DNA from: Saccostrea cucullata
Taxonomy: Eukaryota
Assembly (NCBI RefSeq): GCF_032062105.1
Contig: NW_026940671.1
Coordinates: 62,001-125,871, forward strand
Length of the DNA stretch: 63,871 bases
Reading direction: 5' to 3'
The notes beneath the pieces were generated by a model. That model made no database searches. It was not told where the DNA came from and was given only the letters and a program-made list of their open reading frames with translations. The number at the start of each line of letters is the position of its first letter. Position 1 is the stretch's first letter. Positions 1,336 to 62,209 of the stretch are shown one piece after another. Made by a program: the position numbers and the translations under genes.

Positions 1336-4300
1336 ATATATGTCCGCCCTCGCTATGCTTTATGAAGGAAAACAAACGGGTGAAACCTAGAGGAACTGGT
1401 AAGTTAACATTTCACTTACTAAAGATCTAAGCTTTATCCTCTAAATTTAAAATTTCTTCAAATAAATTTTCTTAGTACTGTGGAATCATTTTATTTCTTT
1501 GGGGCTCAATGTTCGTGGTTAAGCAAAATGTTGCTGGTTCGTGGGACAGTTAATTCTGGCGTTACTCATTTACTCAGTAAATCCAAAAAAATAAATATAT
1601 TGCAAAATATTTGTTCTGTTGGTACAAATTCATGGATAAGGTTAACCCACAAAATCCACGAACTTTGGTCCCCCGCGAATAACGGTGATTCCACGGAATA
1701 AGAAGATAGATGGAAGGAGAGGCGCGTGGATGAAATGCATTTACACTATATACTGTATAAATTCAGGTAACAGTGCATTTTACAATGGCGACATCGTCCT
1801 TGATGAAATGGCTGCAGACATGATGTATGGACCTGTAAAAAGACGTCGAAAACGAGCGACAACTCGTATGAAAGACCGGTTATGGAAGGATGGCATAATG
1901 TACTATCAATTTGCGCCATCACTTTGTGAGTTATATCTTTCCGTCTACGCTTTATTTTAGATCGAAAGATCTATTAATCTCAATCACTGAATTCTCTTAT
2001 AGCATTCTTTAAATTTTCTCAAAAAAAGAGAAGAAAAGAAATTATTTTTTATAACAATAGTCTTAAAGCTACTAGTATTTTATTCATTTTTAAAAATATT
2101 TTCTGCTCAGAGACGGTTTAATCTAAGTTTGACTTACTAGTAGTTAAATCACCCAAAGTTATTTTTCTTTTTTTACAATCTCACTTCACGCCCTATTAAA
2201 TTTGATAATTAATCATATAATATAAACTATTGAAAAGAAACTGAATGCCCTCGTCTCTTTAATGTTAATTTTCTTTCAAAAAACCCTTTTCAATTTAAAG
2301 GGCCATTTTCTGATGAACGGGTGTATTATTTCAATATTACCATTGTCATGATAAACGTCAAATCATCATCGTACTCAAAACCCCAAACAACATTCCTATA
2401 CGATTGAAAATATTTGGTAACGTATGTATAAAAATACGATGTCATTTTTCTAAGTTTTAAAGAATATTTCACAAGAACACTTTGTAGAAGTGCAACGATT
2501 TGATTTTTTCTTTTGTAATAGCATAATATTATCTTCTTTTAAGAAATCTTCATTACTATATGATTTTTTTCTCGATCAAAAATACTATTTCTGCTTCACC
2601 AAAATGGTGAAAAAAAATATATTTCGAAGACCCCTGAGAATTATGTTTAAAACATATATTTGATTATTTTTCTATCTTAAAACACTGATAGAATCAGTAT
2701 ACTTTCCTATCATTTAATGTATTAATTAACACTTTAATTATAAGGAATTTATTTATCAGCCAGGTCAGCCAGGAAAGCAGTCAAGAAGGCGATGGAACAT
2801 ATATCAAACAGGACGTGTATAGTATTCAAAAAGAAAAGGAAGAAAAACCCGGACTTTGTTAGATTCATCAGTGAACCAGGGTATAGAATTTGAGTTTTGT
2901 TGGCTATAAAATGTACATTATACAATGCCTTTCTAAAATTATATTTTAGCAATTTAAATGACAGTAACACTTACTGAATATGATAAAAAAATAAAATGTT
3001 CAATAGGTTGTAGTGTGTGACTGAAGGAATAAAATGCTACTTTTGATATGAAAGTGAACGCATCTTTATAATATACATGTACATGTACTGCAGTTTCCTC
3101 TTTTACACTTAGTACCTATAACGTTTAGTTGACGGTAGCATTTAAGTACTAGGCTTTCGTTATATTACGTCATTCTTTTAGCTCTCTGTATATTTAAAAA
3201 TTTTATTATGTCTCCCCATTTACCTTCCCAGCTGCTGGTCCAATGTAGGCCGCGTGGGGGGCCTGCAAAATCTCAGTCTCGGTTACGGATGTGGGAGAGA
3301 GGGTACGGCAATTCACGAAATTAACCATGCGCTAGGATTCTGGCATGAGCAGGTCATAATTTTAAAATTCATTATATCTTTAAATGAAGAAAATGATTAT
3401 CACTATTCTTATTAATTTTTGAAAGAAAATTCAAATGAGTTTTTAGGTAGGAAAATAAATTAACTAGAAAATGAATGTTTTTTACCCTGTTTTCTTGTTT
3501 ATTTTAGGCCCGATCTGACAGAGACAAATACGTGGAGGTTAACACGGATAATGTCTCCCCAAACTATATTGGAGATTTTGCCAAATTAAATAAAACAATT
3601 GCCGTATCAAGAGGGTACGCTTACGATTATTCCAGTATTATGCATTACAGTGAACGGACGTTTACCAACAATGGACTCAAGACAATTAAGGCAGGTGATG
3701 AAGTTGTGGTCGATATTCAGTACAGCGATTCATTAGAGTAAATGTTTGATGATCTTACGTATATTTTATGTTGTAGGTGATAGGTATAGGAAAAGAATTA
3801 GCTCTTAGGATCGGGCAGCGTGATGGTCTCAGCAATATCGACATTGCACAACTTCGAGATATGTATTTTTGCAATCGGAAGCAAGATAATGAAGAAACAA
3901 GTAAATGACTTGTAATTTATTAAATACGTGTAATAAGCATTTATATTTTTTGACATTTCTATATATATTCTGATAAAATAGAAAAGTTCTAAAGGCGGTT
4001 CTAATATTTGCAGCATGCCCAAAAGATTGGATAAAACACAAACGTAGCTGTTACAAATTTGTTACCCGCCCTAGGCTTCAGTATGCTGCCGCATACAAAG
4101 CATGTACGGAGTCCTTTAGCACCCTGGTCCATCTTAACACTGCAAACGAAGATAGATTTTTAAAACAATATTTAAAGAAAAACTTTAAAAAGTCGACAAA
4201 ATGGCGAACAGGTGCTCGTAGAATAAATGATACCTTTGTATGGGACAATGGAGAAGACCGGAAGCCGAAGTCTATGACGTTTACTGCCTGGAATAGTGGT

Positions 4301-5025
4301 CCCCCAGAGGGATATTCTACCATGGTTCTTGGACGGGAAAACTCGACATCTGATTTTGCCTGGGAAGGGGCGTGGACAGGATCGGTCAAACAGCTTCCAG
4401 ATCACGCATTCTCCTTCATCTGTGAACGGAAGGCGAGACGTATGTACAACTGTACATGTATTATGCAATCAAAATTATTCTTTGCTTACAGGCATACTAG
4501 AAGTTACAAAAAACAATTAATTTAGTATTGGATTTGTATAAAATAAAATTCCGTTTGACAGGGCTTTTTGTGTATTTTCCCCCTGTTTTATCTTGTCTGA
4601 TTTCTCCTGTAGGTAAGTGCTTACCTCTAGAGTTTGAGGATGGGAGAGATTATCGCGGGAATCTCCAGCATACTGTATCGGGGATCACGTGTCAAGACTG
4701 GACATCTAAATACCCCCAACGGCACAGTCTGCTGGCAGGAATTACCGCAGATGTAAATCCAGACGGTCTGGGGGATCATAATTATTGTAGGAACCCATTC
4801 CGCATGCGCAGAAAAAGACCATGGTGCTTTACAACGAAAAAGAACGTTGAATGGGAGTATTGTGACGTCACTATTTGTAAAGGATCTCAAAATAACACAG
4901 TTGATAATAAACAGAAAAGAGAGAAACTTGTTTCCAAGAATAGTATATCGATATCTGAAAAGTTTGAAGAATACTCAAATAGTATATCAGAACAGATTAG
5001 CGCAAATAACGTTATACAGCCGTAG
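1336..5025 (+). CDS. Astacin-family zinc metalloprotease with C-type lectin and kringle domains (5' end lies outside the window)
   Basis: Phase-consistent exons 1336-1398, 1767-1925, 2760-2880, 3232-3352, 3508-3690, 3777-3900, 4014-4439, 4613-5025. Motifs: prodomain YNGDI, furin site RRKR|ATT, zinc motif [17 protein letters not shown], Met-turn [22 protein letters not shown]...SCYKF...FICE, kringle DYRG...CQDW...HNYCRNP...PWCF...WEYC. Confidence 0.93.
1476..1698. mobile_element. MITE in the astacin gene intron
   Basis: CTGTGGAATCA...TGATTCCACGG inverted termini; accounts for the spurious ORF 1480-1701. Confidence 0.6.
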
Positions 5026-26300: not shown

Positions 26301-27337
26301 ATCTACAACTCCTATGTAATATTAAAAATATTTCGAAAATAAGATTTCATCAGAATAATATTTAAATGCAGTAAGGATATACAAATATTTACAATACAAT
26401 ACTCTTTTAAACACGAAATCGAATTGCGAAGAAAACATTTTCCTATTTTACCACAAAACCTTTTACCTTACAAAAATAAATGCTCAAGTATAAACAAAAT
26501 GACATACCTGAATGATAGTATGCTTCATGGATTTTAGCAGATACATCGCTTTCTTTTCGAGCATCAATACACACATACGGCTTCAAAAATGGCGGCAAAT
26601 CATTATCGGTATCTAAGCCATGTAATATCAAGGGAATTATTCTCAAACTGAACTTCCGATCAAATGACATTTGAACAGCTAACCTTGCCTCCATGTCACA
26701 CCAATGACTACACAGAAAGTCTGGACTAAGGACCAATAACACTTTGACACTTTTTTCCATCTCGTGTTGGATATTCTCATCAATTTTTTTGGCAATCGTA
26801 AAATCACGATCATAATACATGCACTTCAAAAGAAATCTGTTTTCAAGTTCTTGACATATTTTTAAAGCTTGGTCACCATCAACGGCAGAATGAGCGATAA
26901 ATAAATGGTAAAGTTTACCAGAAGGGAGATCATCGAATTGTTTTCCGTCAATACTGACTTGATCACTGTTTATCTGGAGGATATCCCCAGTGTCATCACT
27001 GTCCAGTAAAGGACAGTTTTCTTCTCGGCTGTTTGTTTTGGACCTTGAAATGTGATGATGTAAATTCAAACTTCTTGTGTTAGAGTCATTTTCAATTTTA
27101 CACAGTTGTAAGTCAACATTTTCCGCCATAATATCTAATTCTTCCTCATTATTTTCTCTTCTCTGTTGAAAACCGGAATTAAAAAGCATATCAATGTATT
27201 AATTACGTTTCAAATTTTGAAGGAGATATTCTTATTTCCAATCAGATTGACTTCTCTAAATGATTTATATAAAGTGAAAAAAAATCCTTAAACACACTAA
27301 TAAAACAAAGCTACAAACCAAAAATACTTACTTTCAT
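23326..27337 (-). CDS. TIR-domain protein with two TM helices and a TMEM268-like C-terminal region, ~503 aa
   Basis: Minus-strand exons 27337-27332, 27162-26508, 26311-26279, 26181-26030, 25850-25578, 25438-25334, 24296-24261, 23704-23645, 23517-23326 join in frame (1512 nt). TIR: YHLFIAHSAVD, DRDF, VLLVLSPDFLCSHWCDME, IIPLIL, LPPFL. Two hydrophobic segments in 25578-25850. C-terminal IRYDIKACQEY and RHNTWLRKACVCQVLE. Confidence 0.85.
24098..24232. mobile_element. Hairpin (foldback) MITE in a TIR gene intron
   Basis: Imperfect palindrome over its whole length: TTTATTGACT..ATGCGTTTTGT..CGAACCAA / TTGGTTCG..ACAAAACGCAT..AGTCAATAAA. Confidence 0.75.
24516..25211. mobile_element. Long-TIR foldback element in a TIR gene intron
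   Basis: ~280-bp imperfect arms from TAGGGTTAATGAA/TTCAATAACCCTA inward to TTCCGATGACCCTACCGAGCGTTA/TAACGCTCGGTAGGGTCATCGGAA. Confidence 0.8.
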
Positions 27338-27609: not shown

Positions 27610-30600
27610 ATGAAACAAGCCACTCTTTTTGCTATATTTCTAGTGTTACTATTTCAGGTAAGAAATATATGCTATTTCTTATTCTTACTTACGTATATAT
27701 TTTATCGAAAAATAACAGGAAAATCCGTCGTCAATTCAGTGTATAAATAATGGACTAACAATTAGTATGAAAAACATCAGTCAGCATTTGACGCAATGTT
27801 AAATTTATTTGCTGACAAGGTCATTGTATCGACCATAGTACTTACGAAATACTGCTTCTAAAAGAGACTGCTGAAATTCTTGTTTCATCAACTTGTTTGT
27901 CAGTAATTTACTTCGTTTTAGAAATAGTTCATACGTAGAGCATGCTTTTGCGTATCGAATCAACTGAGATATATATAAACTCCGTATGCAGGTGATAAAC
28001 GTATATTGCTGCATAAGAAAGGGAAGTTGGCGATAGAAAAGTTAAAGTCATAACGTTTATCATAGAGCTTGCTTGTTAAATTACCATTAACGTCATTTTC
28101 AAGTAAAATATCCGAGCATGAAACAGATATGTCAGATGCTCCTGAAAATATTCAATATTTTATTTTTCTTTATGCAAATGGGAAAAACCAAATAACACTT
28201 TTACTCAAAGACACAAACCACCAGTGTCTTGTCACTTAAATTATATGTCAATCAGATATTCTCATTTCTGTTTGCCAACAATAAATCCAAAAGCATTAAT
28301 TCTTTACAATTTATCATTAACTATATAAAATCATCAGCTTTCTTTAAAAAAAAAAACACACAGACTATTTTATGATTTACTTTTTTTTTTATTTTTGTCA
28401 GCAAAGTTTACAAAATGAGGGCCATGTTGGACTTTTAAAAGCTTCCGTTCGCGCCAAAACAGGGTATATTGCAAGATGCCCACCTGCAAAATACATAAAC
28501 AACGGAGAATGTGTGGATCAGTGCCCTCCATTCAAAATTTCAATATTTAATGGCTTTGCAAAAATATGCGTAACAAGAAATGAGATCTCTTCTTGTCCGA
28601 CCGGTTCTTGCAACAACTTTTGTTACAAGCTAGAATGTGTGAACATGTGTCCATATTACACATTTGACTTGAACACCTCATGTATTGTACGGTGTCCCAA
28701 AGATGCTAATTTTGTTGTAACTCTTAACTGTGATGATGATTGCTTTTTTGTAATGAAAACATGCTATTCAAAGTGCCCCGATTCTTATTATTATTTGATG
28801 AAAACACCTTATTTTGACTGGTGTTTAAAACAATGTCCAATATACACCGCTAAGAATAATTTCACTTGTGAACTATCGTGCAGTACTGACAAACAATACC
28901 TTTTTAACAACACATGTTTGAAGGCTTGTCCATCTAGTCATAAGTACATGTTCCTTCATGTTTCTAAATTCAATGAAATCTTAATGTGTACCGATAATTG
29001 CCATGATCGAGTGCTATATGGAAATCAATGCATTTCAAAGTGTCCTTCATTAACTGTTTTGTACAATGGAACTTGCTCTACTGGCTGTCCATCAACACAC
29101 CCTCTTCTTTATTCTTCGCAGTTGAAATTTCGGGATGACATTCAGCTCAATAGGTCTGACCTTGCATGTGTCAGTGAATGTGGGAATGATTACAGCATTT
29201 TTAATTCTACATGTGTTGCAGATTGTCCTGACTCATTTCCATTTTCACTCAACGGAACTTGTACGCAGGAATGCGCCGATGATAAACCAGTCCATGTAGA
29301 AAAACAGACAAAGTGCATTCCATCATGTCCCTTGGATTATTTTCTCTTTAACGATACAGGCATATGTTATGACCGATGCCCGAAATCATATGTGTATACG
29401 TACAATCAGACATGTCACTCAGAATGTCCAGATTATCTCCCTTTCCAACTGACACGTCAAAAGAAAAGTTTTATTCTAATTGGTCATTCATTTCAACCCG
29501 TTTTGTATTATGAATGTGTCGAAATGTGCCCCAATCTACATTATCAACAACAATGTGTTGATGTTTGTCCATTAAATGCTAAATATAAATCATTCAAATC
29601 CTGTGTAAATCAATGCTCTGGGGATCTCCCTTTCTATCTTACTTTAACAATGCAATATGTTTTCTATGCACATGAAAAGGAAACTATTTGCGTTAAGTCG
29701 TGTCCTGCATACTATGTTAATCATACAAAAGTTTGTACATCAACATGCCCCTCAGACTCTATGTTTCTTTTCAACAATATTTGTCTAAAGCGTTGTCCGT
29801 TAACGAAAAAATTTGGAGAAAAAAGTCATTCATTTTACGTGTGCGTTCAAAAATGTCAACATTTGTCTTTCAATAACATATGTGTTGATAAATGTCCAAA
29901 TGCTGCAAAATATAATTCAAATTCAACTTGTGTAAGCAAATGTAGTAACTCATTATTACCTTACTATTACTTAAATACAACCAAAGTCAGAGCCCGTTAC
30001 TACGGCTACAAGATGGAAACAAATTTCTACTGCTTGGCGTCATGTCCGTCGAATTTATTTGGCTTTGAACATAGATGTGTTGATAAATGTCCGAAAGCAA
30101 CATTCTATTTTGGAAAGAAATGTTTATTTGACTGCCCACTGTCTTATCCATATAAAATACCGCCATTACAAAAATGTGCAAATGTTTGTCCAAACACGAC
30201 ATATTTATATAACAGGACGTGTGTTCCAATGTGTCCAGACAGTACGTTTCAGTTTCAAAACAGATGTGTTTCAGAGTGTCCAGACTCTCACTCGTGGATT
30301 TATACAAAGAATGCTTCTGCAAAGCATGTTCAATACCTATGCGTTGATGTTTGTCCAGTAGCTACTTTTGAATTTAAACCTAATAAACTTTGCTTTGATA
30401 AATGTCCAGATGGTTTCTTCATTGACCGTAATGAATGTGTGAAAACATGTCCAAAGAACAGAAAACTGGTAAACAACTCCACAAAAGAGTGTACAATGAA
30501 CTGTACCGGCATGTACCTGCAGGGAAATTTTTGTGTGAATCTCTGTGTCGAAGAAATGTTTATATTTCAAAATTCATGTGTGAATTCATGTCCCTCTTCA

Positions 30601-32035
30601 CATCCTCTTAAATATATAACCAACAATAAAATACTAACCCAAAAGTTTTGTGTCAAAGAATGTTTAAACAACACATATATTTTCAATGCATCATGTTTCG
30701 ACGTTTGCCCAAAAGGGCTCCTTGCTTATAATAGAGATTGCTTAAAGGTATGTCCGTCGTCACATCAAATTATTAATGTCATTACAAGAGAATGTGTCCA
30801 GAAATGTCCAAGGAATCTTGTTTTATCATATCCCAATAAATGCGAGAAAAGGTGTCCATCTGGGAAACAATTTATTGAAAATGGAATTTGTCTAAGCTCC
30901 TGCAAGAACAACACCCGTTTATACTATCCAACTTCAAATGGATACCTCTGTACACACTCGTGTTCAGGTGAATATGTCCAGCTTCAAGAGACAAATCGTT
31001 GTGGGAAAAAATGTCCCTTCAACAGAATCATAATTGATGAAATTTGTATGCTTTATGAAAAATGCACAGATCATCCACTCATCGAATACACAGCCAAGGG
31101 CAAAGTCTGTAAACATGGATGTTCTGCTGGAATGTATCTGAATGGGACCAATTGTATAGATTCTTGTCCAAAAGATATGTTTATTCTTAACAAGACTTGT
31201 GTACAGACTTGTCCAGAGTCAGCTCCGTATCTGTGGAAGAGTTTTGGGATGACTTTCTCTCGAAAATGTTTGCCTCGTTGTCCATTTTTTACGGTTATGA
31301 ATAGCTCTAATTGCATTCTAGTAGAAGAGTGCATTGGATTCCTTGGTGAAAAGAATAACGCTATTCATAACGGAAAATGCGTTCCAGAATGTCCCTATGG
31401 GTCTGTGGAATTTAAGGACAAAAAATGTAGATATAGATACGAGTTTATTTTACCAATCGTTATATGTTCTGTCATTTTTATTGGCCTTGTTACATCAATT
31501 TGTAAGATGGTGTCGTGTAGGATGAAGAAAACTAATACGGTGAGTCAAAAACATGTGTTAAAAAATATTATTCTTATATTCAAATTGATTTTTTTTAAAT
31601 ATTAGAATTCTAACAGTTAAGGTGCACCAAAGCCGTATTGTTTTTTAAATTCAAACTTTGATATCAAGAAGATCTTTTATCCATTTATTTAAAGATGTGG
31701 TAAATACATTGTTGTTACAGAATACGCAACAAAGGTCTGATGGAATAGATAAACAAAATGAATTCACCAGCTTAATTGAGGACGAAACTGAAGCAAAAAG
31801 CATAATCGAAGGCTTTGAAAGACAATCAATCGAGGACAATGAATTTACAGGTTCTTTCCAACCCGGAAATAATATCAAAAGTGTGATAGACGATGAAAAA
31901 CGTCTCCCTAATGAAGACGATAATTTACAAGGCTTGATCCATAGCAAGGCATCAGTTAAAGATACCTCCGAAAACGACGAAAGACAGCCAAATGAGACAG
32001 AAAATAAAGTAACTATAGATGTACATGAAATTTAA
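27610..32035 (+). CDS. Type I membrane protein of tandem furin-like Cys-rich repeats (PCSK5-like repeat region, no protease domain), ~1166 aa
   Basis: Signal exon 27610-27657 (MKQATLFAIFLVLLFQ|gtaag). Single 3138-bp exon 28402-31539 with dozens of CxxxCP...C repeats and TM FILPIVICSVIFIGLVTSIC. Final exon 31721-32035 encodes an acidic tail. All junctions phase 0. Confidence 0.9.
27710..28135 (-). mobile_element. Penelope-like RT fragment in intron 1 of the furin-repeat gene
   Basis: Translates as YISQLIRYAKACSTYELFLKRSKLLTNKLMKQEF...FRKYYGRYNDLV. Confidence 0.8.
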
Positions 32036-51459: not shown

Positions 51460-52257
51460 AACAAGAGGCCCATGGGCCTTATAGGTCACCTGAGCATTAT
51501 GCAACATCTTTCCAGTGATTGAATTTGATTCATGTTTTAAGCCAAATGCTATGGCATTCACAATTTTGAAAGAGGCACCATTGATCATCATAACAATACA
51601 CTTAGCAGTTGCTTAGTTTGTTTACTTAATACCCATATGCAGGGTAAGGGAACAAAAAAATGTATTTCAACTAATCAGTAATATTCAGCAATAATCAGTA
51701 GTGCCCCTACCACACATGAACCCCTGACCCTTAGGCCTTGATATCTGATTAATACCAAGGAGCAGATTTCAAACCATTCATTCATTTTCAGTAAATAAGT
51801 ACAGCCCCCCCCCTTCTATGGAACCCCTGACCCTGGGGCCTTGAAATTCACAATTCTGGAAGATATGGGCCCTTGTCCAGCATAACTATATAGGTAGTTC
51901 ATCTGCTTAATACCCAGGAGCAGAGAAGAAGATTTTCAAAGAATTCATGTATTTTCACTATATAATCAATAGAGCCCCGCCCTAACACCAGAACCCCTGA
52001 ACCTGAGGCCATAAAATTCACAATTTTGGCAGAGGCACTCTTGCTCATCATAACTATGCACTTAGTTAGTTTATTTAATACCCAGGAGCAGAGAAGAAGA
52101 TTTTCAAAGAATTCATGTATTTTCACTATATAATCAATAGAGCCCCGCCCTAACACCAGAACCCCTGACCCTGGGGCCATAAAATTCACAATTTTGGTAG
52201 TGGCACTCTTGCTCATCATAACTATGTGCTTAGTTGGTTTATTTAATACCCAGGAGC

Positions 52258-52291
<34 letters not shown>

Positions 52292-52700
52292 CACTGCCTA
52301 CTTATTTAGCCCCGCCCTAGCGCTAGAACCCCTGACCCCAGGGCCATGAATTCCACAATTTTGGTAGAGGACTCATTGCTGATTACAATCATGCAAACAG
52401 TTTGACTGCTTGATGTCCAGTATATGTGTTTCTTAATAGGAGTAAAGAAGAAGATTTTTAAAGATTGCATTAATTTTAGTGGTTTTGGCCCCACCCCTCA
52501 GGCCCCAGAGGGGCAAGGATCATGAAATTCACAATTTTTGTTCCCCTTCACCCATAGATGCTTTAGGCCAAATTTGGTTGAAACTGGTTCAGTGGTTGCA
52601 GAGAAGAAGCTGAAAATGTTCAAATGTTAACGCACAACGCACGACGACGGACGAAAACAGATAGCAATAGGTCACCTGAGTTTACTCAGGTGACCTAAAA
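51460..52700 (-). mobile_element. Helentron-like element carrying a 168-bp satellite array
   Basis: Ends AACAAGAGGCCCATGGGCC..TAGGTCACCTGAG and TAGGTCACCTGAGTTTACTCAGGTGACCTA. Units TAATACCCAGGAGCAGAGAAGAAGATTTTCAAAGAA at 51908, 52076, 52244. Confidence 0.88.
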
Positions 52701-53189: not shown

Positions 53190-53455
53190 ATTTCTTACCA
53201 GTCCTCTCGAAAATTATTCACTCATATGCAGACGCCATCACTTGCCAGTGAAGAGCAGCAAATTTAGTCCTATACTCGGCACTAACGGACATTGAGCAGT
53301 GAGGGGTCGTTTTAGTGCCAGCACCTACTGGGACGCGGCACTTCGATTTTTACGGTCTCATCCGAAGGACCGGTTTCCACGTCCCGCAATGGGATTCGAA
53401 CAGCGACGTAAGGATCAACTCCTTAATCTGCAACTCTACAGCTGATACGGGCGAC
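53190..53455 (-). mobile_element. tRNA-derived SINE
   Basis: Same core and B box as the 46668 copy, reverse orientation. Confidence 0.8.
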
Positions 53456-54409: not shown

Positions 54410-54532
54410 TTTGAATGTTTCCGACAGATACAATACAAAAATGGAGCAGAGAAAACACGGACCTCTAAAAATCAGAGGTTGGGATCAGGTGCCATGAAGG
54501 TGTGAGCATCTCCTGCCGACCGGTCACACCTG
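54410..54532 (-). mobile_element. Penelope-like tail fragment
   Basis: GGGATCAGGTGCCATGAAGGTGTGAGCATCTCCTGCCGACCGGTCACACC. Confidence 0.65.
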
Positions 54533-54543
54533 TCTAAAAATGT

Positions 54544-57500
54544 TCAAAGCTCCACAATATCTGAAGAACTAACTACATGTTCCTGTAAGCGCATAAGATG
54601 CAGTAAGGACTTGTAAAGGTTCTTCACACTATCCCAGGTGGTCATTTCCCTAACACGAATTTTGTTAAATCTTTGTTCAAACTGTAATTTGTCACCTTGA
54701 AGAACGATGAAGACATATCGCACACCGTCTGTCAAGATGTTAAAAAGAGGCATGTTTTTGTTGTTCGTTTTCCTCGTCAGGCGCTCTGTCTGAAGTATGC
54801 AGAGTTCTAGGACAGCTTGAACTACAGAATCTGGCTTGAGAGATCTAGAGCTTTTGGCTTCGACTGCTCCAATAACTTCTCCATTACTGTTGACGATTCT
54901 ATAATCAAATTTGCAATTGGGGAGATAAGAACAATCCACATTTCTTTCAATTTCAACAGAAAGGTTTAAACATGAACAGAGTGGAAAGAAAATTTCATTT
55001 AATATAAGCCTTGTTCCCACTTCTGTCCTACACAGAGACTCAAAGTTACAAGTTAGCGTTTCTTCTTTTTCATGTCCGAAAAATTTAACTGTTGATGATG
55101 CTATATGAATTCTACGTTTAAACTCGGAAATCATCTGATCTACTTGTAATTCATTTTCACAAAGATTTTGTTGTAAATCCAACTCTTCCACAGAGCTTTC
55201 AAAATCGAAGTAGCGAGAAAATAAGTCTAAATTCCATTGAGAACAAGGTTTGTCGATGTCGTCCTTTTTATTCGGTGTACGTTCAGCTCTTATTCGTGGC
55301 CTTTCAATTGAATGCTCCTTTTCAAGGGAAGCCAGATGCTGTGGATTTATGTCTGCCAATATGTCGATTTCATCCGATTCCTGATCAGGCGAGGACAGAT
55401 GTTGTTGAGGGAAAACAATTGGTGATCTCTTGATTTCACCGTTTGCATTGCTGGTGGATTTCATATTTGAGATGCCATTTCCTAGTAATACATTATCAGT
55501 TTTGAGATTTAAACTTTCATTTTTGTTAAATCCAGTGCTTATAACTTCTTCATTGTAAACTTTTCCAGATAAACTTTCCCAACTATCCTTCTTGAATTTA
55601 TTATTCTTCTCCTCCCATTTTCTTTGAGAACCAGGTTTTCCGGTTTCCAGTACAAATCGTTCTTGTTCAAGGTCACCGCTTATTTTCTTTGTTTCTATAC
55701 TAACTCCGGAATCTTGCGCTCTCCCTTGAGTCTCATTCTTAAGGTCTAAGTCAACATCTTTTATTGCTGGGACGCTGCACAAATCATGTTTTTCAGTATC
55801 AATATGTTTTCTGGGGCTAAGCTCTGTTATATCCAATGCAATAACATTGTCTTGCTTTCTTTTCTTTGGTGGAGAAAATGTCTCATCTATGTTCTCTTCA
55901 ATTGACTCGTCATCGCTAATGGCTATAGGATTTTCTATGGAATTATCAAGCAATTCGATATTGATTTGACCTGTCGGAGAAAATATGCTCGCACCTGTTG
56001 AAAGTGTTCTCTGCTGGTCTTGATTATCAGTGTCTCCTTTTTTGACTGCATTAGGTCTTTTTGACAAAGAACCTGAATCCGTGCCATCAAGGGAAGCACC
56101 TCTTGAATCTTGAGAATGGATGCTAGATAATTGCCCTTTTGGAAACGATGTTCCACTTCCAGCCTTGTCATAAAGTTTGAGGACTTCATTTTGTTGAAAA
56201 TTTTTGGTAACTTTTCTTAGTTCCTCCGACCTTCCTTTGACAGGTATCGGCTTCTCGGTATTTTCAAGTAATCTATTGGCAAATGTTTGAGATAAATATT
56301 GCGTTCCAGGTAACTTCTTCTTGATTTGCATTCTGCTTGAACCACCCCATGTCACTTTGCGAGGAGATCGAAGAGGGCTTAAGAAGGAATTCCATTTCAG
56401 TTTATTCTCTATAAGGAAATCAAAGATATAAAATTAGAAACTTAAATTTTAGTTTAAAAAAATAATTCTATTTTGATTCCTTTGTATTTTAATTAAAATA
56501 TATTTGTTACTATTCAGACTCAGTGCTTAGAGCGTCTGCTCTAAAGTGGGGGATCCTTATGTCCTGGATTCAAATCCACTGCGGGACGTGGAGACCGGTC
56601 CTATGGATGAGACCGTATAAACCTAGGTCGCGTGTCGCAGTAGGTACATGTACTGGCACGAAAGTGCTCAATGTCCCTGAGTGACGGGTATATGTCTAAA
56701 TTTGCAGCCCTTCCACCGACAAATGGTGGCTTCTCTATATGAGTGAAAATTGTCGAAACGGACGATAAACAAATAAGTCCACGGAGGAAGGACATGCATG
56801 AAATAATAACAATGTATTTTATGTAATCCATGTGAAGAACACCAAGAGAACAATTACTGGGAAGAAACGGACTCAAAGATATTTGAAATAAGTGTACACA
56901 GTTTTCAGGAAAATTAAACATTTAATTTGCCATGACTCACATGAGAACAGAACTTCAAATTGTAACTAAGAAGTTCAATCGTACCTGGGGTCTGGTTTTA
57001 ATTTTTTTTTTTAATATTATCATTTTTTTTTTACACATGCAGCTCCTAATTTTTCTGTCAAACAATGTTTAACACTACTGTCTCAACATGACGAAATCTT
57101 TCAATCGGAAAAGATCTGTATCATGGTATTTCTGAATGATTAGGACAATACTAATGACTACTTCGTTTGTTTGTTGCTTAACATCCCTCTCGAGAATTTT
57201 TCACTCATGTGCCAGTGGAGAAGCCGCCACGAGCGGTGGAGGGCTCTACTCCGTAACTCGGCACTCAAGGCAATTAAACAGTGAGGGATCTTTTTTTCGT
57301 ACCAACACACACCTACTTCGACATCGGACCTCGGTTTATATGGTCTCATCCATGTCTTCATGTCCCGCACTCGAACCCGCGACGCGGACTACTTCGTAAC
57401 TAAGGCACTATTTCCTCTAATAAAAGTTTACATCTCAGAGAAAAGAATAATACAGGTGTATGTTGGTACCTATTAATTAAAGTATGACTCTCTTGAAAAT

Positions 57501-58914
57501 TGATTTTTGAAGAAAAGTGCAAAAGTTTCCTACAGTAGTTCATCATGTAGGATTCCACCTTATCATGCATGGTACTATTGTGTATTTAAATATTCACAGT
57601 CCAAACACATCTAACTGGTTTCAGATATAACGAAAAATTATATAACTTTATACACAAATTTCGGAAGGAAGTCTTGAACAAATTTAACTTGAAGTGCAAA
57701 TTATTGCAATAATTTAATACCAAGGTTTTCATTCAACAAAATAGCATGAGTCAAGAGGATAACATTCAGTATTTCAGAAACAGGTGCCATAAAAAATATG
57801 AAATGAAATTCTTGCCGAATTTTTGCTCTTTTTTGTTTTAGAGACCACGATTAAAAAACGTTGGCGTGTATGTAATTGCTTATTAACGTCCAGTTGTCAA
57901 GGTAGTAACACATTTTAAATTGCAAAATAATTTTTCACGCCCTGCAAACCATTAACTTAGCCTTTAGACACACTTGTTTAATAAAGATACAAACAACTGT
58001 ATATTTAATTATGATTTACACAAAAGAAATATTATTAATAGCCCTTTATGTTCATGTGGAAAGTATGAAGATGTTTACCATTTCTTCTTTGCCTGCAGAA
58101 ATTATCCAAACGCTAGGAATAATCTTTTCAATCGCCTATTTTTACTTGACGAATTGGTCAATATTGACAATATTGACACAAATTTGTTATTATGTGGTGA
58201 TGTAAATTTGCCTGTTGAAACAAACACATATATTTTTGCTGCTGTGCATAAATTTATTGACGAATCTTGTAGATTTTAAATTGTTATATTTCTGAACAAA
58301 TATTCCACTTGTATCTCTTTTGTATTTATATCTCTATGTACTACATGTATTTTTATTGCATGACATATAGTTATATTTAAGGAGAGGAACTCGTAAGTTG
58401 AAAGAACTTGTTTCCAATCCTTTTGTTTAATACAATAAAATATGTTCAAAACAAAACAAAGATATTTATTGTAAACTTTGACTATTAATCTAAGTTAATG
58501 GTTCTGGGACCTGGGTAGCGCTTTCGCGTGACGTGATTCAAATCGGTCGAGTTACGTATTCACTTGACACCGGCTGAACTACTGGAAGGAAACTTCCTGA
58601 AACAAATTACTAGTTTTTGAAACAAATTACTATTCGAAGAATGCTTTGGGTTTTTAATCACAATGTACTTACATGTTAATAATTTTAACTAACCACACGT
58701 TTTTCTTTTAATTCAAATTTTTTTCTTACTTCAATTGAAAACAACGTTGTATGTAAGAGATTCGCAAAGTCATGACTTATTATTGTTCGCTGTATGAAGT
58801 TTGTGAACAAAATACTATCTCCAAAACCTTAGATATCATTCTATTTACTTTAAGCGAAGGGAAAAAAATGCGGTAGAACTTTAAATGACGAAAATTCTTA
58901 CCTGTCCACTCCAT
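54544..58914 (-). CDS. Protein with disordered N-terminus, NLS and C-terminal PD-(D/E)XK (HsdR_N/REase-like) nuclease domain, ~625 aa
   Basis: Large exon 56408-54544, containing the 603-aa ORF. Probable first coding exon 58914-58902 (ATGGAGTGGACAG|gtaaga, phase-compatible, less certain). Motifs TEVGTR..., KFDY, AVEAK, VVQ, ILTDG.RYVF; NLS PPKKRK. Confidence 0.78.
56515..56776 (+). mobile_element. tRNA-derived SINE
   Basis: GGATTCAAATCC B-box remnant, GGATGAGACCGTATAAACC core, ATGAGTGAAAATT..CGA 3' part. Confidence 0.75.
57160..57385 (-). mobile_element. tRNA-derived SINE (partial)
   Basis: (TTTG)n tail, TCTCGAGAATTTTTCACTCAT, GACCTCGGTTTATATGGTCTCATCC. Confidence 0.72.
57930..58460 (+). mobile_element. 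3' end of a non-LTR retrotransposon (CR1/L2-group-like), 5'-truncated
   Basis: NYDLHKRNIINSPLCSCGKYEDVYHFFFAC...LLCGD...FIDESCRF* is a typical LINE ORF2 C-terminus, followed by a 3' UTR, AATAAA and a (CAAAA)n tail. Confidence 0.82.
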
Positions 58915-60250: not shown

Positions 60251-61350
60251 TGAATCACGTGTCCTTGGTTTACTTTGCAAAAATCCAAACAACAGTGATA
60301 TATTAACCTAGCACCCCACCCCCCCCCCCCCACCCCACCCCCCCATAGTTCATTAGTGTTTAGAGTTTTCTAAAGTATGATGCAGTTCTTACCACTTTAT
60401 AAATAAACATGTCTAGTAAATTCAAGAAGTCAAAAAAAAAATTTAACAGTTAGTAGAATGACCAATTATTTATTTTCAAGACATAAATATGCTGTCTAGT
60501 CCCATTCACTTTTGTAAATATAAGTAAAATGTTGTTTAAATAAATACGAGGTATAAAAGTAGATAATATTTAGTGTCATTAATATAAAATTCCGTTTAGA
60601 AACATCACATTTTTATCCCTGCCTCTAAAATAAAATATCCAGAAGTGTTACATGTAAATAACTTAAATATTGTAACTCTTCACATTTTCTCCTCTTTTTA
60701 TATTCACCTAGACCTATAACGCTGCCGAAATATGGTTTTTTTTCTCGATGATTAATTTTTCGCATTTTTTGCAACCATTTTTAATTTACAAAATATAAAA
60801 ACATGCTGACATTATGTCAGCAATGATTGATGTGTCATAAAAACATAACCATTTTAAACAAAAAAAAAATCATCAATCGTAAAAAATAACTTAGGCAAAA
60901 TAAAAACTGTACTAATCTATCCCTTTTTCGCAAAATTTCCAACATGTGAAAATAACGGATATATGGTACATTACGTGTATATCATAAAACATTTACTTCA
61001 TAATCCTCTCAATACTTTCTTCACATTTGTGAAATCATTTTATGTATGGAAAAGAAAAGAAAAGTTAATTATACCATTCTGATCAATCTCCATTGTCCAC
61101 CTGGCCTGTAGTCAAATGCTATCTGTAGTTCACTGGTGATGAGGAACCATCAGTTTCAAACAACTTTGGGGTCTTAGTGGTATTTCTGTCAAATATGTTA
61201 ATATTCATAAACATGTACTTTCATGAATAACCTTATTTTCAATCTGTTATAAGATTGTAAAACTGATAAATAAGTAGAATTTTTCACGGATTTATGACAA
61301 AAACTGTATTGATTCTCCGTTTACATGGTTTACATATAATATCAATTATC

Positions 61351-62209
61351 CATACTTGCCAACCTCCAGCATTTAAAAATCTGGTCATGACCAGATTTGG
61401 AAAGTAAAAAATCTGGTCATAACGCGTAACGACATTCACGACATATTTACCATGATTTAATTTTATACATATATATACAAAGTATTTGTGTATTGAGAAT
61501 TCTTTTATTGAAAAAGGATTTAATTAACTATGACAAAAAATTCATACATAATTTGATTTAAATTTACATGTTAAAAAAATGGAAATTGAAGGTTTTTTGT
61601 ATTAGTATTGACCTGTAGTAAGTGTGCATTAAAGCCTTTTCAGTTTTCTGCTAAATTTGAAAGAATACCAATTTCAGTTGTGAAGTTATTTTTCCTCTCT
61701 CTTAATTAATTAACTACTGCAATATGTTTTAAATGTGAAGTTAGGCCAACACTGTTATCGATCATTTTATTTCATCTAGAATGAAAGTTTTTTTTCCAAG
61801 ATTCCTTGATATGTAGATCTACATAAATATCGTTTCTCTTTGTTATATCAGAGAAATGTGTTTAGTTCAACTTGTTCCTGTTGGCCCAGATAACGATTTA
61901 GTTCTATCGTTCCAAGCCATTTTAATTGACTTCAAACATTGATTTGTCAAAACAACACCCAGTTAATTGTTAACACCTGCACTGATAATTAATCCATCGG
62001 CATTGTTTACGTAGATCTAAGCTTGGGTTGTAACTGGAAGTTAAAAGTGCAACCTAATTTACGAACCAAATCCGGAAAATCGGGAGATTTTCGGGTTGAT
62101 CGGCAAAAATCGGGTGATAAGCATGACCCGCCGGGTCATAAAAAATAATCGGGTTACGGGTTAAAAAATCGGGTGTGACCCGACGAAATCGGGTGAGTTG
62201 GCAAGTATG
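61351..62209. mobile_element. Non-autonomous DNA transposon, 859 bp, 6-bp TSD
   Basis: TIR CATACTTGCCAAC/GTTGGCAAGTATG, TSD ATTATC on both sides, subterminal AAATCGGG/AAATCTGG repeats. Confidence 0.88.

Follow-up and report, generated by a model that had tools for sequence, protein, structure and literature searches.

A low-copy, two-exon oyster gene encodes a protein of predicted PD-(D/E)XK nuclease fold from an apparently unnamed eukaryotic family

We describe a gene of Saccostrea cucullata on contig NW_026940671.1 (NCBI RefSeq assembly GCF_032062105.1), within a stretch of 63,871 nucleotides (positions 62,001 to 125,871, forward strand; hereafter 'the window', numbered from its first letter). 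It is a host gene of low copy number with two exons on the minus strand, and its 625-residue product carries at the C-terminal end a predicted restriction endonuclease (REase)-like domain of the PD-(D/E)XK superfamily. The E-D-E-K core of this domain is intact, the domain is under purifying selection, the gene is spliced in a close relative, and the relatives of the protein have a wide taxonomic range. The family is real, apparently unnamed and without a Pfam model. In the reading that we favour, at a probability of about 0.45, the protein would be a nuclear, Mg2+-dependent DNA endonuclease, recruited by SUMO through a disordered loop and acting in genome upkeep or surveillance.

A first-pass annotation of the window, made from the sequence, had flagged the interval 54544..55030 as a nuclease-like domain. 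All the motifs it listed are in place on the minus strand of a single open reading frame (ORF; 56433..54544, 629 codons), namely E..TR.IL (55023-55000), KFDY (54912-54901, D codon 54906-54904), GAVEAK (54870-54853, with VEAK at 54864-54853), a conserved Q (Q535, 54819-54817) and ILTDG..YVF (54738-54709, holding D565), and the frame closes with a stop codon at 54546-54544. None of 100,000 shuffles of the domain contained this chain; the test is weak because the pattern was derived from the same sequence, and conservation and fold search are better tests. The flagged interval corresponds to the catalytic part only, as the folded domain begins at about 55266 and the gene reaches its ATG at 58914. 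Exon 1 contributes 13 coding bases (58902..58914, minus strand; M-E-W-T and the first base of E5), placed by spliced RNA reads, by sequence context and by the RefSeq-derived protein P0003, which begins MEWTE. A GT..AG intron of 2493 nt containing dispersed repeats follows (56409..58901, minus strand, donor GT at 58901-58900), and exon 2 (54544..56408, minus strand) supplies the remainder of the protein and the stop, approximately 10 residues past the nuclease domain. The RefSeq protein of S. cucullata retrieved in the homologue search is 100% identical to this product over 613 residues.

The RNA data, three raw read runs and one contig set, come from a close relative that is approximately 93% identical. 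The joint between the two exons is crossed by four reads with four different starts in one of the three raw runs (X21), and by one contig of the fourth run (X13). Exon 2 is covered at a depth of about 1-11 in this poly(A) RNA, and the raw runs have zero depth over the unique bins of the intron. RefSeq model LOC134255978 has a different 3' part, leaving exon 2 at 54571 to join a cysteine-rich and C-type-lectin gene that lies further downstream (45505-42650). We rejected this nuclease-lectin fusion, which is likely a chimera, because reads of all three raw runs continue unspliced across 54531-54571, the orthologues end at the same position as the unspliced exon 2, the 9-residue bridging piece maps to about 46981 in a heavily repeated bin, and the downstream gene (45550-42650, minus strand; three-finger-like by eye in its cysteine-rich part) can begin independently at 45550, in frame and with a hydrophobic stretch.

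A phmmer search of 1.84 billion representative sequences returned 98 proteins at E up to 0.001. A taxon was on record for 15 of the 30 relatives looked up, and all 15 are eukaryotes: 11 animals from five phyla, two unicellular holozoans and two Rhizaria. They comprise the molluscs Saccostrea, Magallana, Pinctada, Argopecten, Gigantopelta and Haliotis (two proteins), the annelid Owenia, the brachiopod Lingula, the nemertean Lineus, the rotifer Didymodactylos, the ichthyosporean Sphaeroforma, the choanoflagellate Choanoeca and the rhizarians Paulinella and Nonionella, with contamination possible in the protist records. Taxonomic distribution, one of the checks proposed in the first-pass annotation, thus extends from molluscs to unicellular holozoans and Rhizaria. 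Orthologues are present in other oysters; no vertebrate, arthropod or nematode was among the 15 named relatives, which is no proof of their absence. In the literature searched we found no account of the family, although the text or supplements of Zhang et al. 2016 may cover it.

The relatives share approximately 20-35% identity. In an alignment of 90 rows (A2), the predicted catalytic residues (54853..55023, minus strand) are kept as follows: E467 (55023-55021) in 85 rows, D506 (54906-54904) in 90, E521 (54861-54859) in 88 and K523 (54855-54853) in 89, so that the catalytic D/E/K, described as intact in the first-pass annotation, is preserved in 88-90 of 90 rows. The adjoining clade motifs (54709..54819, minus strand) are kept at Q535 in 84 and at D565 in 87 rows. 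Fragments were excluded from the alignments, as were two proteins (P0037 and P0043) that show S to L/F, T to I and A to V changes throughout; these resemble a base-converted Magallana-type orthologue and are likely artefacts. A FastTree phylogeny of 88 rows placed the named molluscs, Owenia and Lingula in one clade with an SH-like support of 0.97. Eight ENA records (P0064, P0099 and P0135-P0140) form a subclade of several divergent copies, two of them on contigs of the same length and some with altered catalytic residues, a birth-and-death pattern.

The query sequence brought up no useful match in Pfam, in PDB sequences or in NCBIfam. Within the family, no member reached a Pfam cut-off: sub-threshold matches to HSDR_N (PF04313) were seen in 23 of 90 and to HSDR_N_2 (PF13588) in 9 of 90, the best member scoring 23.1 bits against a cut-off of 25.1, and the query itself had no HSDR_N match at E up to 1. 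The domain with its N-terminal extension (KDDIDKPCSQW...; aa 386 to ~616, 54574..55266, minus strand) was modelled by AlphaFold with a mean local confidence (pLDDT) of 90.1 and a predicted template modelling score (pTM) of 0.89. The model shows the alpha-beta-beta-beta-alpha-beta core of the PD-(D/E)XK superfamily, with E in helix 1, D in strand 2 and (D/E)xK in strand 3. When it was searched against 48,161 solved chains, most of the 50 fold matches listed were REase-fold proteins, including DrdV (Z 12.7, root mean square deviation (rmsd) 2.6, 140 residues aligned, 16% identity), BpuSI (Z 12.2, rmsd 3.3, 149 aligned) and HsdR of V. vulnificus (Z 9.2, rmsd 3.5, 127 aligned). A Foldseek search likewise matched the model, at E 5e-5. 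The REase fold proposed earlier from HsdR-like motifs is upheld, as one of the HsdR-N and type IIG-like branch. Against viral structures, Foldseek gave generic PD-(D/E)XK matches only.

With DrdV and BpuSI (type IIG/IIL) and HsdR the oyster family has in common the fold, the D...EAK core and a conserved Q in the next helix. The QxxxY motif, which we take to be that of HsdR, is replaced here by QxxxQ/E-L. In contrast to those enzymes, the family has no methylase, specificity or helicase part (Pfam, applied to 86 relatives with E of at most 0.01, showed no SF2 helicase and no HsdM/HsdS-type methylase) and it adds an N-terminal extension, a split module and a long disordered loop.

The top structural match was a mitoribosomal protein, mL37 (MRPL37), with Z 13.7 (rmsd 4.3, 202 residues aligned) and, on a second look, up to 14.7 (rmsd 3.8, 207 aligned); over all comparisons Z was 13.7-14.7, with 202-211 residues aligned, rmsd 3.5-4.6 and 8-11% identity. 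Its partner mL65 (MRPS30) matched at Z 12.6-13.6 (at Z 12.6, rmsd 4.2 and 200 aligned). These two share an extended REase fold of about 200-210 residues with the oyster domain and were the only ones among the top matches that also span its first 47 residues. Both are described as repurposed endonucleases in PMC8998825, and as a metazoan-specific duplicate pair, whose outside origin is not stated in the part seen of PMC1950548. Oyster mL65 holds the stretch GILTDGRKFQF, a GILTDG-x-x-F-x-F pattern in common with the nuclease, and this protein reaches 13.2 bits with the family profile, where the best of 5000 shuffles had 7.5. The clade motifs at 54709..54819 resemble oyster mL65 and also the stand-alone REase-like proteins of cyanobacteria considered below, which outscore mL65 against the family profile. 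We tried the N-terminal extension as a link specific to mL37/mL65 and found it weakened, since the cyanobacterial proteins score higher and have, by eye, extensions of similar length. The oyster family differs from mL37 and mL65 in that its catalytic core is retained, and the oyster has a separate mL65 gene; PDCD9 (PF07147) has no match in the query and is listed for none of the members. The mL65 exons carrying PF07147 (L011 and L012 on G000:C17639) lie on another contig than the nuclease, and the S. echinata orthologue is called 'uncharacterized' in RefSeq.

Common descent of the family and mL37/mL65 within one REase branch is likely; a sister relation is a possibility. The fold match raises the possibility that the protein is directed at RNA, as an RNase or a ribonucleoprotein factor whose function would resemble that of mL37/mL65, or of RAP-domain proteins, more than that of a restriction enzyme. 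The whole-domain match to mL37, extension included, and the score of oyster mL65 above its shuffles speak for this; but mL37 has a higher rmsd and a lower identity than DrdV, the profile-profile probability against the single mL65 sequence (hhalign) is only 28.9% over 29 columns, the cyanobacterial REases score above mL65, and nuclear localisation signal (NLS)-like and SUMO-interacting motif (SIM)-like stretches in the loop point to chromatin. We regard an RNA-directed function as unlikely. It is more unlikely still that the protein is a catalytically silent or barely active scaffold that binds nucleic acid and has its role in the SUMO-binding loop. The repurposed fold of mL37/mL65 and the decayed cores of some relatives are consistent with such a scaffold, but retention of the catalytic D in 90, the K in 89 and the two E in 85-88 of 90 rows, at such low overall identity, is hard to explain without catalysis.

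The nearest bacterial relatives found are stand-alone cyanobacterial proteins of approximately 210 residues, annotated as 'putative Type I restriction endonuclease subunit R', which match the family profile over EAK...Q...G. Six such proteins in five cyanobacterial genomes score 20-28 bits, compared with about 140-260 bits for eukaryotic members; they are thus far more distant than any of the latter, and they are without the N-terminal module and the disordered loop. The nearest Atlas neighbours were fungal hypothetical and FunK1-associated REase-like clusters (0.95), followed by the cyanobacterial proteins (0.93). The family likely goes back to stand-alone REases of bacteria and predates the animals. 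The data do not support a recent transfer, because the named relatives are all eukaryotic and the bacterial proteins score far below the members.

Among eukaryotic REases, the closest comparison is with the CR-REases of Crinkler/RHS-type effectors of fungi and oomycetes. The likeness to these proteins noted in the first-pass annotation stands for the order of the motifs, but it does not extend to their other parts: no Crinkler ubiquitin-like/LxLFLAK header, NTPase or kinase was matched by Pfam in the query or in 86 relatives. The His found three residues after the catalytic E in CR-REase7 is missing (E-A-K-S in the oyster protein). The oyster family is also of low copy number and apparently vertical in molluscs, and shows no many-copy expansion in this genome, although other lineages may be expanded. 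According to PMC5289972, PMC12957317, PMC11342252 and PMC6131194, Zhang et al. 2016 are said to report CR proteins in free-living eukaryotes including animals, and CR-REases are linked to transposons in PMC5289972 and PMC11342252.

The 1.17-Gb assembly was searched with two different protein queries; the counts are lower bounds. Both found the same at least four genomic places: this gene, a copy of it with 96% identity on contig C6841, and a paralogue with 61-62% identity that is present on both C5597 and C6841. Contig C5597 overlaps the right end of the window at 98-99% and carries the paralogue directly upstream of the gene, its exon 2 lying just past that end (G000:C5597:10087-11550); the places are therefore most simply explained as two tandem genes on two haplotypes. 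The C6841 copy of the gene (G000:C6841:6948-7922, L005) is 93% identical in DNA, has lost its 5' part, contains a frameshift and adjoins LINE-like ORFs; it is a recently broken allele or duplicate. The intron is at the same place in both paralogues. Upstream of the gene, a local duplication holds the tandem paralogue's first coding exon once more (61072..61093, minus strand); this extra copy has the same splice phase and could serve as an alternative first exon. A DNA search (40 of 6446 candidates scored) gave no further copy of the coding region; the remaining matches belong to a repeat downstream of the gene. An array of a 168-nt repeat unit occupies 51460-52540 of the window and has very deep read coverage from the related organism.

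These data bear on whether the ORF belongs to an ordinary transposon or selfish element, or is a recent horizontal import. The first-pass annotation had seen no terminal inverted repeats (TIRs). Exon 2 does lie between a pair of inverted repeats (53250-53416 and 56552-56713), and the ties of CR-REases to transposons in the literature cited above also favour a mobile origin. We rejected this pair as TIRs: its arms are 75-84% complementary copies of a dispersed repeat that also occurs at 57166-57351 and elsewhere, and exon 1 falls outside it, so that the absence of true TIRs holds. In place of many near-identical, TIR-flanked copies there are four genomic matches, of which a single one besides the gene is near-identical in the ORF, and the shared intron position, the orthologues in other oysters and the lack of any match in the plasmids and phages searched are likewise against a transposon or an import. 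Of 132 pattern matches in a metagenome scan, none was confirmed. This explanation is largely refuted and in our view extremely improbable; of the earlier proposal of a domesticated or horizontally acquired nuclease, what survives is that the ORF belongs to the host and not to a transposon, while the recency of domestication or transfer does not.

Selection was estimated as dN/dS by the Nei-Gojobori method, another of the checks proposed at the outset, and for the nuclease domain the values of 0.11-0.31 show purifying selection. The ratio was 0.14 between the gene and its C6841 copy, 0.20 against the paralogue (with dS saturated at 1.7), 0.31 between the paralogue haplotypes, and 0.11 for the RNA differences, of which 40 were listed (184 more exist) and the 36 in frame were used. 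The disordered loop gave 1.46 between the paralogue haplotypes (30 non-synonymous and 6 synonymous changes), which suggests little constraint, a ratio not shown to differ from 1.

Several features of the protein lie beyond the first-pass annotation: besides the mL37/mL65 match, these are a split N-terminal module and the SIM- and NLS-like motifs. The module, WxxFLxPL ... xLSxxFxxxL (aa 10-52; 56266..56394, minus strand), is specific to the family, was delimited by alignment, hidden Markov model and structure model, and is seen from Sphaeroforma to oysters; it has no match in mL65 or in the cyanobacterial proteins. Its profile (35 rows) matches 5 of 73 other proteins at E < 0.01, many of the 73 being fragments or without the module. 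In one of the five, a protein of Haliotis cracherodii (P0045, XP_071086571.1), the module comes after the nuclease domain (E 8e-11), a circular permutation as judged from the protein record. The linker between module and domain ranges from about 0 to 416 residues in 38 further proteins. In the full-length model (pTM 0.63), pLDDT is 96 for the first ten residues, 76-91 for exon-2 residues 31-70 and 84-87 for residues 351-370, but 268 of 621 residues are below 50. The domain by itself makes up 40% of the chain, yet pTM reaches 0.63, from which we infer packing of the module against the domain. The model thus predicts that the N-terminal module docks on the nuclease and that the disordered segment loops out from a single folded unit. 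A complex prediction of exon-2 residues 1-82 with 340-621 gave a median of 0.62, but one control reached 0.50, and we count it neither for nor against docking.

The loop itself is rich in Ser, Asp, Glu and Lys and approximately 260 residues long (55390..56160, minus strand, limits approximate), as judged from composition, from linker lengths and from pLDDT below 50 across nearly all of exon-2 residues 83-339. In the otherwise unalignable loop of oysters, ENPIAISDD is one conserved island: the SIM-like NPIAISDDES (aa 164-173; 55903..55932, minus strand) is kept in 9 of 9 oyster rows of alignment A1, the paralogue row being the most divergent, and it fits what we take to be the SIM patterns, for putative SUMO binding. 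It is followed by a putative NLS-like PPKKRK (aa 184-189; 55855..55872, minus strand), with the KRK core in 7 of 8 other rows of A1. The N-terminus, MEWTENKLKW, appears from its sequence unlike a mitochondrial presequence. SIM patterns occur in 7 of 23 representatives of the lophotrochozoan clade, where 2.3 are expected, and one of 500 shuffles reached 7.

In type I and IIG restriction nucleases acidic residues hold Mg2+ and a lysine positions water. By analogy, E467, D506 and E521 of the oyster protein would bind Mg2+ and K523 would position the attacking water; the KKRK motif may import the protein into the nucleus, and the PIAISDDES motif may bind SUMO and so take the nuclease to damaged, stalled or foreign DNA, where it would cut at chromatin marked with SUMO. 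Recruitment and the structure of the DNA would then choose the target, in place of a recognised sequence, because no recognition or methylase partner accompanies the domain. Several observations weigh against a SUMO-recruited nuclear endonuclease of this kind. The fold fixes neither substrate nor activity, as the top match, mL37/mL65, binds rRNA and is described as a repurposed endonuclease; the rows of the alignment were gathered with this query, which favours conservation; and in the tree the lophotrochozoan clade leaves out Lineus and the rotifer, whose branches are weak or long. Beyond this clade there is no enrichment of SIM patterns (3 of 43, with 2.8 expected), and four of the seven SIM-positive representatives are related oyster sequences. 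The second, haplotype-like copy on C6841 is broken, and the many divergent copies and decayed cores of some lineages (P0136, P0138 and P0139) fit defence better than housekeeping.

The protein might instead be an effector of innate defence, a possibility we consider doubtful. In the manner of NucC, Shedu or the Crinkler-type REases, the nuclease would stay latent, held off by module and loop until a trigger, and would then break down viral or other foreign DNA or kill the cell that is infected. The domain is of the same fold class as NucC, SduA and Can2 (Z 6.5-7.5), its nearest Atlas neighbours are the fungal REase-like clusters, and both the birth-and-death pattern of some lineages and the loop dN/dS between paralogue haplotypes would be in keeping with defence. 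Bivalve immune families tend to expand, but this oyster has two genes only; moreover, no sensor, death-fold, NTPase or kinase domain was found in the 86 relatives scanned, and the loop ratio, as stated above, may not differ from 1.

Elsewhere in the window, a TIR-domain exon (25566-27198, minus strand; Pfam TIR_2, E 3.7e-16) is followed by a hydrophobic, membrane-like frame, and a TIR domain before a transmembrane segment is an unusual order. A single frame of 1085 codons at 28348-31605 (plus strand) contains furin-like cysteine-rich repeats and ends in a hydrophobic segment. C-type lectin and kringle exons are located at 1646-5025 (plus strand); the frame ahead of them has no Pfam match and recalls what we presume to be an astacin pro-region.

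To our knowledge, active PD-(D/E)XK nucleases are few in animals, and DNA repair or RNA processing is the role of most that are known. A family with an intact core, extending from ichthyosporeans and choanoflagellates to molluscs and having no Pfam model, is an additional candidate enzyme, and the RefSeq fusion model of its oyster member is corrected here. The split module, the freely varying length of the loop and the natural circular permutation make up an unusual regulatory anatomy. Should the protein prove antiviral, it would be of relevance to oyster disease. The match to mL37/mL65 offers a candidate source of two animal-specific mitoribosomal proteins; in its boldest form, which we advance as speculation, a family of restriction-like endonucleases that is older than the animals, has a split fold, is recruited by SUMO and has stayed active in invertebrates and unicellular holozoans might be the living active sister of these pseudo-nucleases and so reveal where they came from.

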